A stretch of 64,000 nt of DNA from the NCBI GenBank assembly GCA_963802335.1, contig CAWDIE010000002.1, positions 172,629 through 236,628 on the forward strand, given 5' to 3'. Within the stretch, counting starts at the first letter, position 1; every line of letters starts with the position of its first letter. The notes under the pieces are model-generated. The model was given only the letters and a program-made list of their open reading frames with translations, searched no databases and was not told the origin of the DNA. The DNA comes from an uncultured Planctomycetota bacterium. Its GTDB lineage: Bacteria > Planctomycetota > PLA2 > JAEUHO01. Of this stretch, positions 4,604-10,192 are shown piece by piece. The position numbers and the translations under genes were made by a program.

Positions 4604-7183
4604 TTAGTTGCCCATCGGGATTCCGGTGGCCGGGTAGCCCAGGACCTCGAGGTTCGTCATGAGGTCCACGACGGGCTCCAGCACCGGCATCCACTTGCCG
4701 CCGTTCCACGTCAGATCGTCCGTCGTGAGGCCGGTGCCTTCCAGCGCGGTAGCGGCATCGGCCGGGCGGTAGCCGGACGGATCGTTGGGGGCGAACCAGT
4801 TCAGGACGAAGGTGTTCTTGCTGTCGCGTACGTACGTGGTGTCGCCGTGGATGTCCACGTTCGTTCCAGCCAGCACGTCTTCGCTCGACGTCGCGAGGCC
4901 AAGGTCCACGAGTTCCTGCACCTGGTAGTAGCGCCATGCGTAGACGGGGAACTCGAAGGTGCCCATCGGACCCATGTCCACGAGTTCCTTGCGACCCACG
5001 GGGATCTTGTGGGCGAGAACACCGTTGCCGCCGTGGCAATCCGCGCAACCGGCCGCACCGAGCGCCTGCTCCTTCGGCTGAACGCCGTGTCCACCGAGGG
5101 TGACGTTCGAGAAGGCCGGGTAGTTCGCCACGGCCTGGAGGAACGCCTCCTGCTGATCCGGCGGGAGCTGCTGGGCCTGCATCTGCAGGAACATCTTCAT
5201 GAGACTGCCGTCGGGCAGCTTCATGCTGATCGTGTCCTTCACGCTCTCGTACATCGGATACCACTGGTAGTCGGCCGGGAAGCCCATGGGGCCGTTGAAC
5301 CCCATGAACTGGCGGAGGCCGGCGTTCGATGCCATGAACATGTCGAACAGGAAGTCCTGGCCGGCGTCGATGATGCCGTCGGCGTTCTGGTCGAACTCCG
5401 AGCCGGTCTTGGCGAGGTAGTGCTCGAACCCGAAGTCGGCTTTGTCGAAGTACGCCAGGTTGGGGAAGATCTGCATGAGCGCCATGGTCTGGACGCTCGG
5501 GTCGGGGTTGCCGAAGTCGGCCAGCGTGACCGCGCGAACCTCGTCCGGTGTCATGTCGAGCATGTCGAGCGCGTAGAACGCTTCCGCATTGCTTCCATTT
5601 GCGAAGAAGCGATACATCGAGTGAGCGTTGTACGGGCCGACGTCGTTGTCGACCGTGGCGCCGTTGAAGTAGCGCGAGTCGAAGACCATGCCGTTCGCCA
5701 TCGGCTTGAACGGGACGACCTGGGCATTCGGCATGCCACGCACCGCCAGCGTCTGGGCGAGGAAGCTCGTGCCGCCGTTGAACCAGACCAGCATCGGGCG
5801 GGTCTTGAACGCTTCCCAGTCCGCATCGATGTCGGCCCGGTCCTCCGCGATGTACATGTCTGCGACGACGAGCTTCGTGTCGCGACCGTCTTCGTTCCGC
5901 GCGAACGAGACGTGGCCGCCGTGACCGAAGAGCGAGTAGGTGATGCCGCTCGCCCACGTGATGTGGCAGGCCTGGCAGGAGAACGTCTCGAGGTGGCGGT
6001 CGCTGTGGATCAGTGCGTTGGCTTGCTGCAGGTCAGCGACGTCGTGGCACGTCTGGCAGGTCAGGTCGGTCGGATCGTTCGGATCCGGCGCCGTCCCGGG
6101 AGGCGGCGGCGTGTAGTCCGCCGCGGCCAGGTCGCCGCCGACCATGTGCCCACGGACGTACTTGTGGTCGTCCACGGTATGGCAGGTGGTGCACTGGTTG
6201 GTCGTGCCGGCGAACGGGCCCGTATCGAGGGCCGCGTGGACGTCGTGACCCTCGAGGAACAAGGTGCCGCGCTTGTACCCCGTGCGCGCGTGCTCATGGC
6301 AGCGCAGGCAGGCGTGCTCGTCGGGGTTCGTGATCGACGACAGGGCATCCAGGCTGCGATCCTGCGCTACGGTCGGCCACGGCGTGTCCGGCTGTCCGTC
6401 GCCGGTCGTGTCCACCATCAGCGGGGCGTCGAGGACGCCGTCGCCGTCCGTGTCGATGACGAGGTCCGGCTGACCGTCGTGATTGAAGTCGGCGTTGTCG
6501 CGCGAGTCGCGCGCCACACCCACCAGGGTCGGCGAGTGTGCGTCGGGCGTCGCGGTGCCGGCGATGTCGGCCAAGACGCCCTCGGTCGGGTGCGACTTGT
6601 ACTCTTCCGCGTGACACACCAGGCAGTCGATGCCGCCGTCGATGAGCTGCGTGGCCTGCCCCTGCGGATCGGCGACACCCATCTGCTGGAACATGCTGGC
6701 GAAGAAGCCCTCCATGACCGGCAGGTAGCGACCGACGTGGCACTTGGCGCACTCGCCCAGGCCGATGTTGCTCGTCGAGTTCGTGAGGCCCGTCGTCGCG
6801 GGGAGACCGCAGGCGCGATCGAGCATGCCGTGCGCGCCGCCACCGGGGAACAGCACGCGCGGCGTGCGGCCGGTGAGCTTGAAGTGGACGGAGTCCTTCA
6901 CCTCGGCGACGGCATCTCCGTGGCACTTGATGCAGAGCGAACCAGCGAGGTCGCGGTCGACGTCGTCCTGCGTGACACGCTCGCCGTTGACGATGTAGGT
7001 GGCGCTTGACGGGTCGTACTCGAAGAAGTGCACGGGGACCGTGTTGCCGCCGGGCGGAAGCGGAATGGTGGGCCGGGCTTCGTGCCCGCCGCCGCACGCA
7101 CTGAGTGCGCCGAGGGCGATGAGGGCGGTGAACAGCGACAGGACGAGGTGGCGTGCTGTCTTGCCTTGGCGCGTGTGGGCCAT
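4604..7183 (-). CDS. Octaheme c-type cytochrome lipoprotein, divergent octaheme tetrathionate reductase (OTR)-like, 859 aa
   Basis: Start MAHTRQGK at 7183 with GGAG RBS; lipobox LSAC. Eight CxxCH (CIKCH, CAKCH, CLVCH, CLRCH, CTTCH, CQTCH, CQACH, CADCH) in a 7+1 layout with OTR-like landmarks DVH, WFNG, PFKP and HGVQPKEQALG. Acidic DxDxDG loops. Confidence 0.85.
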   Translation of the reverse strand: MAHTRQGKTARHLVLSLFTALIALGALSACGGGHEARPTIPLPPGGNTVPVHFFEYDPSSATYIVNGERVTQDDVDRDLAGSLCIKCHGDAVAEVKDSVHFKLTGRTPRVLFPGGGAHGMLDRACGLPATTGLTNSTSNIGLGECAKCHVGRYLPVMEGFFASMFQQMGVADPQGQATQLIDGGIDCLVCHAEEYKSHPTEGVLADIAGTATPDAHSPTLVGVARDSRDNADFNHDGQPDLVIDTDGDGVLDAPLMVDTTGDGQPDTPWPTVAQDRSLDALSSITNPDEHACLRCHEHARTGYKRGTLFLEGHDVHAALDTGPFAGTTNQCTTCHTVDDHKYVRGHMVGGDLAAADYTPPPPGTAPDPNDPTDLTCQTCHDVADLQQANALIHSDRHLETFSCQACHITWASGITYSLFGHGGHVSFARNEDGRDTKLVVADMYIAEDRADIDADWEAFKTRPMLVWFNGGTSFLAQTLAVRGMPNAQVVPFKPMANGMVFDSRYFNGATVDNDVGPYNAHSMYRFFANGSNAEAFYALDMLDMTPDEVRAVTLADFGNPDPSVQTMALMQIFPNLAYFDKADFGFEHYLAKTGSEFDQNADGIIDAGQDFLFDMFMASNAGLRQFMGFNGPMGFPADYQWYPMYESVKDTISMKLPDGSLMKMFLQMQAQQLPPDQQEAFLQAVANYPAFSNVTLGGHGVQPKEQALGAAGCADCHGGNGVLAHKIPVGRKELVDMGPMGTFEFPVYAWRYYQVQELVDLGLATSSEDVLAGTNVDIHGDTTYVRDSKNTFVLNWFAPNDPSGYRPADAATALEGTGLTTDDLTWNGGKWMPVLEPVVDLMTNLEVLGYPATGIPMGN

Positions 7184-7347
7184 GACGGTGGTCTCCAGGA
7201 GGCGGGTCGCCCTATTCGGGCAGCGCCCGCGCGATGCGTGGCGGGATGCGATGGACATCCCACACCTCATCATCACCGCTGCCGCCCAAATGGGCATGGT
7301 CCGGGGGGGGGGTATCCCTCCCCCCTGGAGGGGAGGGGGCTCTTGAC

Positions 7348-8028
7348 TCAGACCGCGCAGGATCCGCCCGAGGCGCCCACCAGACCGTTCTCCACCGCGT
7401 AGCGAACCGCTTCGGCGCGCGTCTTGAGACCGGTCTTGCGGTAGACCTGCTTCAGGTGGCTGCGCACCGTCGACGGCGCGACGAAGAGCCGGTTGGCGAT
7501 CTCGACGTTCCCCAGTCCCTCGCCGACCAGGCTCAGCACCTTCACCTCTTGTCCGGTCAGGCCCTCGCTGGCCGTGTCGCCAGCCGGCCCCGTCGCGCGC
7601 GTGGCTTGGAGCAGGCGTTCGGTCGCCTCTTCCGAGAGTTGGACCTGGATCAGGCGCTCGGCCGTGACGTCGCAGAAAATGACAGCACGACCGATGCGAT
7701 GCCCGTTGCGATCGACGCAGTTCGTGGCGTTCACCTTCAGGGTGGCGCGTCGCGGCCAACGAATCTTGACCTCCCCCATGCCGCCCTCGGCGGACGTCTC
7801 GATCTCGTGCCAGAACGCGCTGAACTGGGGGTCGCGAAGGACGTGACCGAAGAGCTCCCCCTCGCATTCACCGAACCGCCGACCTAGGACGCCCAGCGCG
7901 GACCGGTTGGCCCACGTGACGCGGCCTTGGACGTCGAGCGTGACCAGTCCGATGCACATGCCCTCGAGGGCCCCGCTGACCAGACAGCTCGAAATGCAGG
8001 GTTTCTCCGGGGGGATCTCGCGAATCAT
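7348..8028 (-). CDS. PAS-domain LuxR-family (HTH) transcriptional regulator
   Basis: PAS-like GLVTLDVQGRVTWANRSA and C-terminal LTGQEVKVL...GLGNVEIANRLFVAPSTVRSHLKQVYRKTG. Start uncertain (8028 or 8061). Confidence 0.88.
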   Translation of the reverse strand: MIREIPPEKPCISSCLVSGALEGMCIGLVTLDVQGRVTWANRSALGVLGRRFGECEGELFGHVLRDPQFSAFWHEIETSAEGGMGEVKIRWPRRATLKVNATNCVDRNGHRIGRAVIFCDVTAERLIQVQLSEEATERLLQATRATGPAGDTASEGLTGQEVKVLSLVGEGLGNVEIANRLFVAPSTVRSHLKQVYRKTGLKTRAEAVRYAVENGLVGASGGSCAV

Positions 8029-8163: not shown

Positions 8164-9033
8164 TCAGCCTCGCTTACGACCGGCGGCGCGGGTTCCCAGG
8201 TAGACACCGCCCGTGACGGCGACGAGGAGCCCGAGGAAGGCCCCCAGCGCGGGCGGCAGCCAGCGCGACGGGCCTCGATCCACCATCGCCAGGACACCCT
8301 GGAGGATCTCACTGGTCCGTTCGAGGAGCCGCGTGGTCTCCTCGACCTGGGCGGCATTGCGCCGGATGGCCTCCGTGGTCGTCTGGACCGCCGCCTGATT
8401 CTCAGCCAGCACGGTGGAGGTCTCCGTCAAGAGGCTGCGGGCGCCGCGAATCTCGGCTTGGGTCTCCCTGAGCAGGTCGCGGCTCGAGGCCACCGTGACC
8501 ATGGCTTCTTCGAGGGCGGTCTTGCCGGTCTTGAGGGCGCCCAACAGGCTCCCGACCTCTTCGCTGGTGGCCGCGAGCTGCCCGCCGCTCGACACCAGCG
8601 TCGTCTCCAGGCCCTGCATCCTGGTGTTCATGGTCCTGAGGAGTCCAAGGCCCTGGCCGAGCGCCTCGTTGGTCTCACCCATCGTGTTCATCGTGCGGCG
8701 CAGGGTGCCTTCGCTCTCGCCGAGAAGCGCGGTCGTCCGCTCCAGCCGCGTCGCGCCGGCCTGGATCGCCCGGTCCGCCGACTCGAGCTCCTGTCCGGCG
8801 CCGGCAATCGCTACGTTCATCCGCTCCACGAGGGCGACGCTCTCGTCGACGCTGACGTGGGCCCTCTGCATGCGAGCACACGTCTCGTCGAGGAGTGGCG
8901 TCATGCGGTCGACGGCGGCGCAGGCCGACGGCATGCTCGTGAGGCCGCGGCAGCCGCCGAGGCCCACGGCGAATGCGCCGAGACAGAGCACCATCCACGC
9001 GCCTGAGACCGGCTGGCCCGGCGTACGCATCAT
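8164..9033 (-). CDS. Hypothetical lipoprotein with a long coiled coil and C-terminal TM helix
   Basis: GGAGG RBS; lipobox-like LGGC; about 200 aa of heptad-patterned helix; C-terminal hydrophobic segment followed by a basic tail. Confidence 0.7.
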   Translation of the reverse strand: MMRTPGQPVSGAWMVLCLGAFAVGLGGCRGLTSMPSACAAVDRMTPLLDETCARMQRAHVSVDESVALVERMNVAIAGAGQELESADRAIQAGATRLERTTALLGESEGTLRRTMNTMGETNEALGQGLGLLRTMNTRMQGLETTLVSSGGQLAATSEEVGSLLGALKTGKTALEEAMVTVASSRDLLRETQAEIRGARSLLTETSTVLAENQAAVQTTTEAIRRNAAQVEETTRLLERTSEILQGVLAMVDRGPSRWLPPALGAFLGLLVAVTGGVYLGTRAAGRKRG

Positions 9034-9121
9034 CGACCTCCCGCTCGGGGCCCCTCGCCGAGGCTCCCACCCCGACCCATCCATCATCGGTCGAGGCCCG
9101 GGGGCTCGGTAGAGTCCTCCT

Positions 9122-9487
9122 ATGCCGGAAACAAGCATCCCTGTTGGCAACCTGGGCCCGAAGGGCCGTCGTCAGCGACGCGTGCTCGGCGTCGTGTTCC
9201 TCCTGCTCGGGCTCGCGGGACTTGCGTGGGTCGCCTTCACCGACCCTCCCCTCGCGCCACGGTTCCTGATCGCCATCCCCTTCTTCGTCGCCGGCCTGGG
9301 GCTGTTCCAGGCCCGCGCTTCGACCTGAGTCGTGCTCGCGTCGCGCGGTCTGCGCGACCTGGACGCGGGCGTAGAGCCGGTCGAGGACGAGGCGGCAAGG
9401 GCAGCGCTTGGGCGCATCGCCCGCGGCGTCTGGGGCAAGACCCTGGCCCTCGCCGCCGCTGGTCTGGTCGTCGCCCTCCTGCTCTGA
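9122..9487 (+). CDS. Candidate small membrane selenoprotein (121 aa, Sec69 encoded by TGA 9326-9328)
   Basis: The frame continues past the TGA for 52 codons with high-GC3 usage (VVLASRGLRDLDAGVEPVEDEAARAALGRIARGVWGKTLALAAAGLVVALLL), ending in a third hydrophobic helix; SECIS-like hairpin 11 nt after the TGA. Confidence 0.75.
9340..9358 (+). promoter_or_regulatory. Bacterial SECIS-like hairpin
   Basis: GTCGCGC-GGTCT-GCGCGAC, a perfect 7-bp stem starting 11 nt after the in-frame TGA. The GGUCU apex resembles the E. coli fdhF SECIS loop. Confidence 0.72.
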
Positions 9488-9525
9488 GGGGAGGGGGCCC
9501 CGACTCGATCACCTGACATCGCACG

Positions 9526-9560
9526 AAAACGCGCCCCGGCGGCAAGCCACCGGGGCGCGT
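9526..9560 (-). terminator. Rho-independent terminator of the HMA gene (possibly bidirectional)
   Basis: Stem ACGCGCCCCGG 9529-9539 pairs with CCGGGGCGCGT 9550-9560, with an inner GGC-AA-GCC pair; short T run on the minus strand; lies between convergent genes. Confidence 0.65.
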
Positions 9561-9586
9561 GGGTTGTTGGGTGCCTGGACGCGCGA

Positions 9587-10192
9587 TCAGCGCGTGGAAG
9601 GCGACGTCCGGCGGACCGGCGTGGAGCGGACGGTAACGGTCCGCGTGCGGGTCGGCTGGGCCGTGGCGGCCGCGGCCGTGGCCGGGAAGCCGGCACGGCG
9701 GCAGGCCCGGATCAGGCCGTTCTGGTTCGTGCGACGGTTGTCGTAGCTCACCTTGGCCACGTTGCGGCCACTGCACCTGACCTCACGAACACCGGGAACG
9801 CGGCGCAGCGCCGCCTTCACGCGTTCGGTGCCTCCCTGGCGGTCCATGTTGTTGACCGACAGGGTTACGTTCTTGACCGGAATCATCGAGGCCGAGTAGC
9901 CGACGCGTCGCACGGCCGAGACCAGCTCCTGGTTACAGGCCTGACCCTGACGGCGAACGACGGTGGCCTCGTCACGACGACGATCCACGGTAGCGGATTG
10001 AACACCACGCACACGGCGCAGCGCCGCGGTCACATCGACCGCGCAAGGGCCTCACCCCATCCCGCTGAGTTGAAGGTAGACACGCTCCGTCTTCACGACG
10101 GTACGTACAGTCGACGTCCCAGCCTCGGCGGCCGCCGCGAACGCGAGCGTCGCCGCGAGGCCGACGGCGGTGAGGATTCGAATACGAGCCAT
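9587..10192 (-). CDS. Candidate secreted heavy-metal-associated (HMA/CopZ/MerP-like) selenoprotein, two HMA domains (201 aa, Sec47 at TGA 10052-10054)
   Basis: ATG 10192 with GGGGAG RBS gives signal peptide MARIRILTAVGLAATLAFAAAAEA, then LQLSGMG-TGA-GPCAVDVTAALRRVRGV, i.e. GMxCxxC with the first Cys as TGA, in frame with ORF 9587..10033. Confidence 0.85.
10025..10043 (-). promoter_or_regulatory. Bacterial SECIS-like hairpin
   Basis: On the minus strand: TGA-GGCCCTTG-CGCGGTC-GATGT-GACCGCG, a 7-bp stem with a G-initiated loop just after the in-frame TGA. Confidence 0.6.

Follow-up and report, generated by a model that had tools for sequence, protein, structure and literature searches.

Selenocysteine (Sec) takes the place of cysteine almost only where that cysteine is chemically reactive, a matter of general knowledge that is also stated in a 2026 review (PMC13188914). 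Table 1 of this review compiles the prokaryotic selenoprotein families, 119 in all, and the identifiers of their models; the bacterial membrane selenoproteins that it lists include YeeE/YedE (GUxSG), a putative mercuric transport protein (C/SxxU), the SO_0444 family transporter (UxC) and the SaoP permease. The review also gives a model of the bacterial selenocysteine insertion sequence (bSECIS), with a loop of 3-9 nt carrying G in its first two positions, a stem of 4-16 bp, a distance of 16-37 nt from the UGA and a minimum free energy (MFE) of -7.5 kcal/mol or lower. A further membrane protein with which comparison is useful is YgaP of E. coli, described as a dimeric membrane sulfurtransferase (PMC4730233). 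Here we report a gene at positions 9122-9487 of a 64,000-nt stretch of DNA (the window) from an uncultured Planctomycetota bacterium (GenBank assembly GCA_963802335.1, contig CAWDIE010000002.1, positions 172,629 to 236,628, forward strand), which most likely contains an in-frame codon for Sec and encodes a small membrane protein.

The list of open reading frames (ORFs) of the window contains a 68-codon ORF at 9122..9328 (+), whose 68-residue product ends in ...FQARAST before a TGA. When this TGA is read as Sec (U), the frame stays open for a further 52 codons (residues 70-121), until a second TGA is reached at 9485-9487. The sequence 3' of the first TGA (9326-9328) contains a perfect 7-bp hairpin that begins 11 nt past the codon and consists of GTCGCGC (9340-9346), GGTCT (9347-9351) and GCGCGAC (9352-9358). 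The original prediction, made by reading the letters of the window, had proposed exactly this layout of a 68-residue ORF, a continuing frame and a hairpin, and each element was recovered at these positions. Taken with the comparisons described below, it is very likely that 9122-9487 is a single 121-residue gene with a genuine Sec codon. A scan of 8950-9650 for promoter and terminator consensus sequences found nothing.

TGA or cysteine at a conserved column

We searched the read-through protein against 61 related genomes, its own genome included. Full-length matches with exactly one internal TGA were found at 19 places in 18 genomes, and one genome alone (G021) had Cys instead of the TGA, reading ...DV-C-VVLAVGG. 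Weak partial matches in G024, G035 and G008:C5 were dropped as non-members or unconfirmed. A 42-sequence profile was searched against 401 genomes spread evenly over the phylum and matched 34 of them. The TGA form was present in 23 genomes (24 places) belonging to five taxonomic families (f1, f26, f55, f83 and f96), a full-length form without the TGA in eight (seven with Cys and one with Ser), and the remaining three held only 75-residue two-helix relatives.

A single in-frame TGA thus occupied the same column in 30 homologous loci from 29 Planctomycetota genomes, and Cys was found at this column, number 69, in seven genomic homologs. The homologs aligned with the read-through protein from residue 1 to 121, and the context of the TGA in the translated sequences was constant (QAxxxT-U-VxxAxRGxR). 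The family profile was also searched against 1.84 billion representative proteins, which gave 2543 matches at E<=1e-3 and 889 at E<=1e-10. Residues were counted in the best 150 of these profile matches, all of about 120 residues: Cys69 was present in 148 of 150, Asn10 in 149 of 149, Arg19 in 149 of 150 and Gln63 in 144 of 150, and Val70 followed in 135 of the 150 Cys-form representatives. The original prediction had expected homologs with either Cys or TGA at position 69 and conservation on both sides of it, and this describes the 30 TGA loci, the seven genomic Cys homologs and the 148 representatives well.

Sec and Cys forms were interleaved in a maximum-likelihood tree of 62 sequences (119 usable columns; poorly resolved), with a minimum of 11 changes between them, at least two of which are forced by well-supported branches. 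A search for related loci with the window protein returned one true relative, a Cys form from a Planctomycetota metagenome-assembled genome (MAG), and a further candidate, L086, was rejected as a false relative. These comparisons suggest a widespread three-helix family of about 120 residues that mostly uses Cys, in which several lineages of Planctomycetota use Sec. Because homologs carry TGA or Cys at one and the same column, and because the frame downstream is selected (see below), the TGA at 9326-9328 most likely encodes Sec.

Two individual homologs may be mentioned here. The genome of the window contains a paralog (G000:C3:58279-58641; L023, L056) that is 49% identical. A TGA occupies its Cys column and a SECIS-like hairpin is present too; unlike the window copy, the paralog carries an N-terminal Cys (TTACPTN). 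The full-length homolog with Ser at position 69 (L090 / L137, G218:C18:37851-38195) reads ...GARTS-RRLATRG, and, going by its sequence, would be a case in which the reactive residue has been lost in nature.

Selection on the frame downstream of the TGA

The G+C content at the three codon positions was 0.74/0.51/0.82 before the TGA and 0.88/0.52/0.87 after it, which is the same coding signature. Over the 45 codons that follow the TGA, the closest pair of homologs (L013 and L018) differed by 14 codon changes that were synonymous only and 8 that were non-synonymous, and differences at codon positions 1/2/3 numbered 7/4/18, a substitution pattern that matches the part upstream of the TGA.

We also compared the region 8900-9700 with public metagenome contigs of a strain that differs by about 3.5%. 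One contig (X1 record 2) covers 9158-9647 and another, from a separate study (X6 record 8), covers 9132-9344; neither shows a difference at 9326-9328. Independent contigs of a divergent strain thus retain the TGA, in line with the original prediction, which would have been refuted by raw reads with TGC or TGT at this codon. Between the TGA and the stop codon the strain carries substitutions at 9364, 9442, 9451, 9464, 9472 and 9479, and all six are synonymous, one of them falling in the polar loop (9329-9427). The 25 nt past the stop contain 8 substitutions and 2 indels. Since every change between the TGA and the stop is synonymous and such a burst of changes follows it, 9485-9487 is identified as the true end of the gene. 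As in the closest pair of homologs, the frame after the TGA is under purifying selection. Separately, short metagenome contigs from other organisms (X1-3, X1-4 and X7-13) match the window only over 9323-9365; judged by this comparison, no other DNA of the gene is as well conserved as this segment, which holds the TGA and the hairpin.

The hairpin downstream of the TGA

The hairpin agrees on all points with the bSECIS model (PMC13188914), with the loop GGUCU, a stem of 7 bp, a spacing of 18 nt that lies within the range of 16-37 nt, and a free energy of -14.2 kcal/mol, which is below the limit of -7.5 kcal/mol. We aligned the 48 nt from the TGA without gaps in the 30 Sec loci, so that the hairpin occupied columns 15-21 and 27-33. 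Pairing was possible in 80.0% of cells compared to 73.9% in shuffled alignments, and the covariation score was 0.220 compared to 0.124, with none of 500 shuffles as high in either measure. Changes on both sides were seen in five of the seven pairs (for example in L006, L008 and L010), and control hairpins slid along the alignment paired in 13.8-69.5% of cells.

Loci that encode Sec and loci that encode Cys differed clearly in this region. Of the 30 Sec loci, 24 had an intact core of 5 bp, compared to none of the seven Cys loci, and the mean free energy of the hairpin was -13.25 kcal/mol in the former compared to -7.91 kcal/mol in the latter. Loop positions 1-2 were GG in all loci, since they lie in the codon of Gly76. 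The third loop base, however, was U (Gly76 encoded by GGU) in 23 of 30 Sec forms and in none of the seven Cys forms, and GGU makes up 14.9% of the Gly codons in 13 genes of the window. The stem is built by the CGC codons of Arg75 and Arg78, which were present in 27 and 28, respectively, of the 30 Sec forms, but each in only 84 of 150 Cys forms. Taken together, the comparison across loci indicates that the hairpin behaves as a SECIS, as had been proposed from its position after the TGA.

Like the SECIS of the E. coli fdhF type, the window hairpin lies within the coding sequence just after the UGA and has a small apical loop beginning with G-G/U. It differs in that its stem is made of the codons of the family-specific RGxR motif, and in that the bulged U of the fdhF SECIS has no evident counterpart in it. 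An Rfam scan of 9250-9450 at E<=10 gave five chance-level matches and no SECIS family.

Selenocysteine machinery

The genome of the window encodes tRNA-Sec, SelA (447.5 bits), SelB (329 bits summed) and SelD, so that selA, selB, selC and selD, the genes whose absence would have spoken against the original prediction, are all in place. SelD, at G000:C1:126618-127540 (L033, L035), matches as two pieces in different frames, and the N-terminal piece contains a TGA; in this genome SelD, too, is probably a selenoprotein. Of the 61 related genomes, 53 yielded a SelA, and of the 17 that carry a TGA form besides the window genome, 16 did so.

Protein architecture and annotation

An AlphaFold2 model calculated with a 42-sequence alignment had a predicted local distance difference test score (pLDDT) of 95.5 and a predicted template modelling score (pTM) of 0.85. 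The modelled elements are helices 13-40, 44-49 and 51-66, residue 69, helix 70-74, strands 77-79 and 84-86, and helix 90-120, and the protein is confidently predicted to be a three-helix membrane protein. The placement of Sec69 after a two-helix hairpin and the presence of a third transmembrane helix in the read-through part, both suggested from the letters of the window, agree with this model: Sec69 directly follows the second helix, and helix 90-120 includes the hydrophobic residues 103-121. The loop after Sec69 carries the beta-hairpin motif AxRGxRDLDxGxEPΦxD. The coordinates of the features are given in Table 1.

Table 1. Features of the predicted selenoprotein gene, in window coordinates.
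Feature	Position	Strand	Description
Complete gene	9122..9487	+	ATG start, 121 codons including Sec69, TGA stop 9485-9487
In-frame TGA, most likely read as selenocysteine (Sec69)	9326..9328	+	TGA or Cys in homolog alignment
SECIS-like hairpin	9340..9358	+	Stem 9340-9346 / 9352-9358, apical loop GGUCU 9347-9351
N-terminal family motif N10-L-G-x(6)-R19 (NxG..R..R)	9149..9178	+	N10 and R19 near-invariant in representatives
Hydrophobic helix 1, residues 21-40	9182..9241	+	Model helix 13-40; mean hydropathy 2.08
Hydrophobic helix 2, residues 48-62, then Q63 and ...T68-U69	9263..9307	+	Model helices 44-49 and 51-66
Polar loop after Sec69, residues 70-102	9329..9427	+	Short helix, beta-hairpin, basic amphipathic stretch
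Hydrophobic helix 3, residues 103-121	9428..9484	+	Within model helix 90-120; mean hydropathy 2.05

Across 151 sequences the mean number of Lys and Arg residues was 4.8 in the N-terminus, 1.45 in loop 1, 7.05 in loop 2 and 0.3 in the C-terminal tail, and helix 1 was almost free of charge. According to the positive-inside rule, the N-terminus and the loop bearing residue 69 are predicted to be cytoplasmic because they are rich in Lys and Arg, and Sec69 therefore probably faces the cytoplasm.

A Foldseek search of the PDB gave no structural match (best E 0.6, TM-score below 0.45), and in a profile search of PDB sequences the best match was a lipoprotein signal peptidase at E 0.11, YgaP not being found. 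No Pfam family exceeded its cut-off for the window protein, for 20 members from the Sec lineages or for 10 Cys forms. NCBIfam models likewise gave no match with the window protein, with the 10 Cys forms or, at E<=0.1, with the 20 Sec-lineage members, a lone match to PhoB among the last being rejected as chance. A natural Cys homolog falls only in unnamed protein clusters. Public entries for members read 'hypothetical protein', and a protein search returned no informative names. The NCBI records of MAGs (Planctomycetia bacterium) hold only an N-terminal fragment of 67-68 residues, and a word-based protein search retrieved mostly truncated forms of 67-69 residues. The suspicion voiced in the original prediction that the gene is routinely truncated is thus borne out by public annotation, in which it appears as a 'hypothetical protein' of 67-68 residues.

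Comparison with known selenoprotein families

The window protein had not been recognised as belonging to a standard selenoprotein family, and our comparison agrees with this. No small three-helix membrane protein is found among the 119 families in Table 1 of the review, and none of the Pfam or NCBIfam models given for these families matched, the model search covering those families that have such a model (PMC13188914). The listed membrane selenoproteins share with the new protein an integral membrane location and a Sec that replaces a conserved Cys; however, their models (PF04143, PF02411, NF033936 and NF040733) are matched neither by the window protein nor by 19 relatives. The families of Haft & Tolstoy 2025 were compared through their NCBIfam models. 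A term search in the covered portions of the BSepDB and deep-Sep papers found no membrane or Planctomycete candidates, and literature searches for DUF2892 with selenoprotein, for selenoprotein with Planctomycetota and for bacterial membrane selenoproteins, with supplements outside their scope, found no description of the family. We therefore rate it, on sequence comparison, as a new selenoprotein family that would use the standard bacterial Sec mechanism.

Relation to DUF2892 and YgaP

The layout of the protein had been said to recall the sulfur-related membrane domains of YgaP and DUF2892. Both families have the N-terminal motif NxG..R..R..G, two membrane helices and a conserved Cys soon after helix 2, and in an hhalign comparison of the family alignment (A3) with 25 sequences of DUF2892 (Pfam PF11127, the YgaP-like transmembrane domain) from the same phylum, 20 N-terminal columns were aligned with 14.7% probability and E = 0.0018. 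This match was confined to the N-terminal motif. The window protein did not match PF11127 at E<=10; two of 20 relatives (best E = 0.014) and one of 10 Cys forms (E = 0.25) did so, all below the Pfam gathering cut-off of 25.3 bits. The resemblance is thus genuine but weak, and no member reaches the Pfam threshold. The new family further differs by two additional elements, a third helix and a conserved polar loop that includes a beta-hairpin, by the sequence around the Cys (QAxxxT-C/U-V, compared to C-P/G in the 25 DUF2892 sequences) and by the lack of a rhodanese partner.

The 75-residue two-helix proteins (MQCNID...GWCAVRAMG) found in three Planctomycetota genomes (L087:283-507 (-), L088:307-531 (+) and L089:283-507 (-)) match the family profile over positions 7-73. 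They match PF11127 with E = 1.9e-4 and 21.9 bits, again below the cut-off of 25.3 bits. From their sequences they may connect the family with DUF2892 in evolution, and a distant common ancestry of the two families is possible.

Genomic neighbourhood

In five related loci the upstream neighbour on the same strand is an AhpC/TSA-type (TlpA-like) protein with a signal peptide. In four of these (L048:6390-7517 (-), L049, L053 and L046) the neighbour itself contains an in-frame TGA, in the motif U-G/K-P-C. The neighbour in L052 reads CGPC; this locus belongs to G021, the sole genome of its genus with a Cys form of the membrane protein. Other neighbours specific to individual lineages are GBBH-like_N, esterase and cupin proteins and a giant FG-GAP/TPR protein.

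Around the window gene itself lie genes for a multihaem cytochrome, a LuxR/PAS regulator, a coiled-coil protein, a degenerate heavy-metal-associated (HMA) protein and DeoC. The cytochrome is encoded by a large ORF at 4604-7867 (-) with eight CxxCH motifs and matches to cytochrome c7/c3 and MtrC-like families, and a homolog of it lies near the family gene in G028 (L047:6880-9711). The convergent gene downstream, at 9587-10033 (-), has a heavy-metal-associated domain (E = 2.3e-6) in which the usual CxxC is lacking by eye.

Possible role of residue 69

In the model, residue 69 would sit at the predicted cytoplasmic end of helix 2 and the start of a short helix, where it could provide the reactive group for thiol/selenol redox or transfer chemistry. 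We looked for a second Cys that could act together with it. Among 150 Cys forms, a second Cys was found before Asn10 in 84, at position 78 in 27, at both in none and at neither in 39; among 30 Sec forms the numbers were 17, 2, 0 and 11. The mutual exclusion of the two positions, a contrast that is inflated by kinship among the sequences, fits what is expected of a resolving Cys. In about three quarters of relatives, residue 69 could thus pair with a second Cys, either before Asn10 or at 78; the window copy, which has no other Cys, would depend on a thiol from outside or on another subunit. On these sequence patterns we regard a redox role of Sec69 as about an even bet.

The alternative that fares best also accepts a genuine selenoprotein, but takes residue 69 to be a ligand or carrier, either of a soft metal (Hg or Cu, as in MerT-like proteins) or of a persulfide or selenium, as in YgaP/DUF2892-like proteins. 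The alignment of the N-terminal NxG..R..R motif with DUF2892, the score of the short relatives against PF11127 (E = 1.9e-4) and the degenerate heavy-metal-associated domain encoded downstream in the window are consistent with such a role, and membrane selenoproteins of metal or sulfur transport are listed in the 2026 review (PMC13188914). However, no Pfam threshold was reached, and the probability given by hhalign was low. The invariant Asn, Arg and Gln would not be typical ligands of soft metals, rhodanese or metal-resistance genes do not recur beside the family, and the facultative and mutually exclusive second Cys fits the pattern of a resolving Cys better. A role in carrying a metal or chalcogen is therefore possible, but we consider it improbable.

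A more specific and still less likely proposal is that the family represents a new membrane-integral fold of selenol/thiol oxidoreductase, in which Asn10, Arg19, Gln63, Thr68 and Sec/Cys69 would have converged on a peroxidase-like active site that lies on the cytoplasmic side of the membrane. Its substrates might be found in the membrane phase, for example lipid hydroperoxides, a lipid-soluble disulfide or a quinone, and it might be recycled by the N-terminal Cys or Cys78, or by an external thiol in copies with Sec only. Peroxiredoxins and glutathione peroxidases show the same exchange of Sec and Cys at an invariant residue beside a conserved Thr, invariant Arg, Asn and Gln elsewhere, and a facultative second Cys at alternative positions. 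Unlike these enzymes, the new family is modelled as a three-helix membrane bundle with no thioredoxin fold. Membership of the thioredoxin fold is not seen in the model, which is helical with one small beta-hairpin, nor in a search of the PDB, where no match reached E<=0.001, and the window protein had no match to an AhpC or GPx family of Pfam.

Is the TGA a selenocysteine codon?

We propose that 9122-9487 (+) encodes one 121-residue integral membrane selenoprotein. The UGA at 9326-9328 would be decoded as Sec by the SelB/tRNA-Sec system of the organism, recruited by the hairpin 11 nt downstream with its apical loop beginning GGU, and translation would proceed through the conserved polar loop and the third membrane helix and end at the true stop, 9485-9487. 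We give this explanation, with a genuine Sec codon in one gene of 121 residues, a rough probability of 0.87.

A number of observations weigh against it. The Sec at residue 69 comes from the comparison of sequences, a look through the public runs turned up neither RNA nor proteome data, and the related genomes are not independent of one another. The hairpin is not statistically remarkable in the lone window sequence (69% G+C DNA): a 66-nt fold had z = -1.88, with 7 of 200 shuffles folding equally well, and a 48-nt fold had z = -0.70, with 45 of 200 doing so; in both, the minimum-energy fold is another pairing. Because the single-sequence hairpin is not beyond chance, the case rests on the comparison with other genomes. 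There too, the sequence around the hairpin is rich in (CG)n, and a control slid by -2 still pairs in 69.5% of cells; the hairpin overlaps the conserved RGxR peptide motif, so that constraints on RNA and on protein are partly confounded; the set of Cys controls consists of seven loci; and the consensus hairpin is absent from three of the 30 Sec loci (L011, L014 and L070), which have other or weak folds. SelA was not found in G004, a TGA-form genome that is 92% complete. With regard to the protein, the model was built from a sequence in which Cys was substituted for Sec, and it is only the positive-inside rule that assigns Sec69 to one side of the membrane. With regard to its role, the window copy has no Cys besides Sec69 and no redox neighbour, and clustering of the neighbourhoods of 38 loci found no neighbour common to the whole family.

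Other readings of the TGA fare considerably worse. The UGA might be read through, with help from the hairpin, as an ordinary residue (Trp, Cys or Gly) delivered by a near-cognate tRNA. Structured RNA downstream of a stop codon can promote read-through, and the inserted residue is not distinguishable from sequence. This would, however, leave unexplained why the codon replaces Cys specifically and why the hairpin conforms to the SelB-type SECIS model in its spacing and G-G/U loop. The Sec machinery is complete here and SelA accompanies all but one of the other carriers, and other genes of these genomes end in TGA. We therefore judge ordinary read-through to be very improbable.

Slightly less probable again is that the TGA is a real stop, and that the locus encodes a 68-residue two-helix protein and a one-helix protein of about 50 residues that restarts at a GTG by coupled translation. 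A GTG directly follows the TGA in 20 of 30 Sec loci (the window has GTC and then GTG), gene callers yield a 67-68 residue product, and two-helix relatives of 75 residues stand alone in other genomes. On the other hand, the break falls exactly on the invariant Cys column of the family in 30 of 30 loci, and Val70 is equally conserved in the unbroken Cys forms (135 of 150), so that the GTG is explained as a Val codon; L004 and L009 do not have a GTG directly after the TGA. A split gene also has no role for a conserved GGU-loop hairpin that decays in Cys forms, and the interleaving of Sec and Cys forms on the tree (at least two changes, and 11 by parsimony) is the usual pattern of Sec/Cys exchange. 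A pseudogene, in which a Cys codon (TGC or TGT) has mutated to TGA, takes a single base change from TGC but has a negligible chance of being correct, given the same TGA in 30 loci over at least five taxonomic families, the purifying selection on the downstream frame and the retention of the TGA in both copies in the window genome.

Conclusions

A full product of 121 residues can now be assigned to a gene that is reduced to a fragment of 67-68 residues by annotation pipelines. It would add a family not found among the 119 compiled in 2026, and one of the few integral membrane selenoproteins. Our understanding of Sec decoding itself is unchanged by the finding. The comparison of Sec and Cys forms shows, in a clear case provided by nature, how an RNA signal can shape the sequence of a protein: the stem codons of Arg75 and Arg78 and the GGU of Gly76 appear to be held fixed where Sec is used, and are relaxed in Cys forms. 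Sec marks reactive and usually redox-active cysteines, so that its presence here indicates which residue is functional in an unnamed family that comprises 889 representative clusters at E<=1e-10. In this way, the Sec forms provide a concrete and testable hypothesis for a large unnamed family of membrane proteins.

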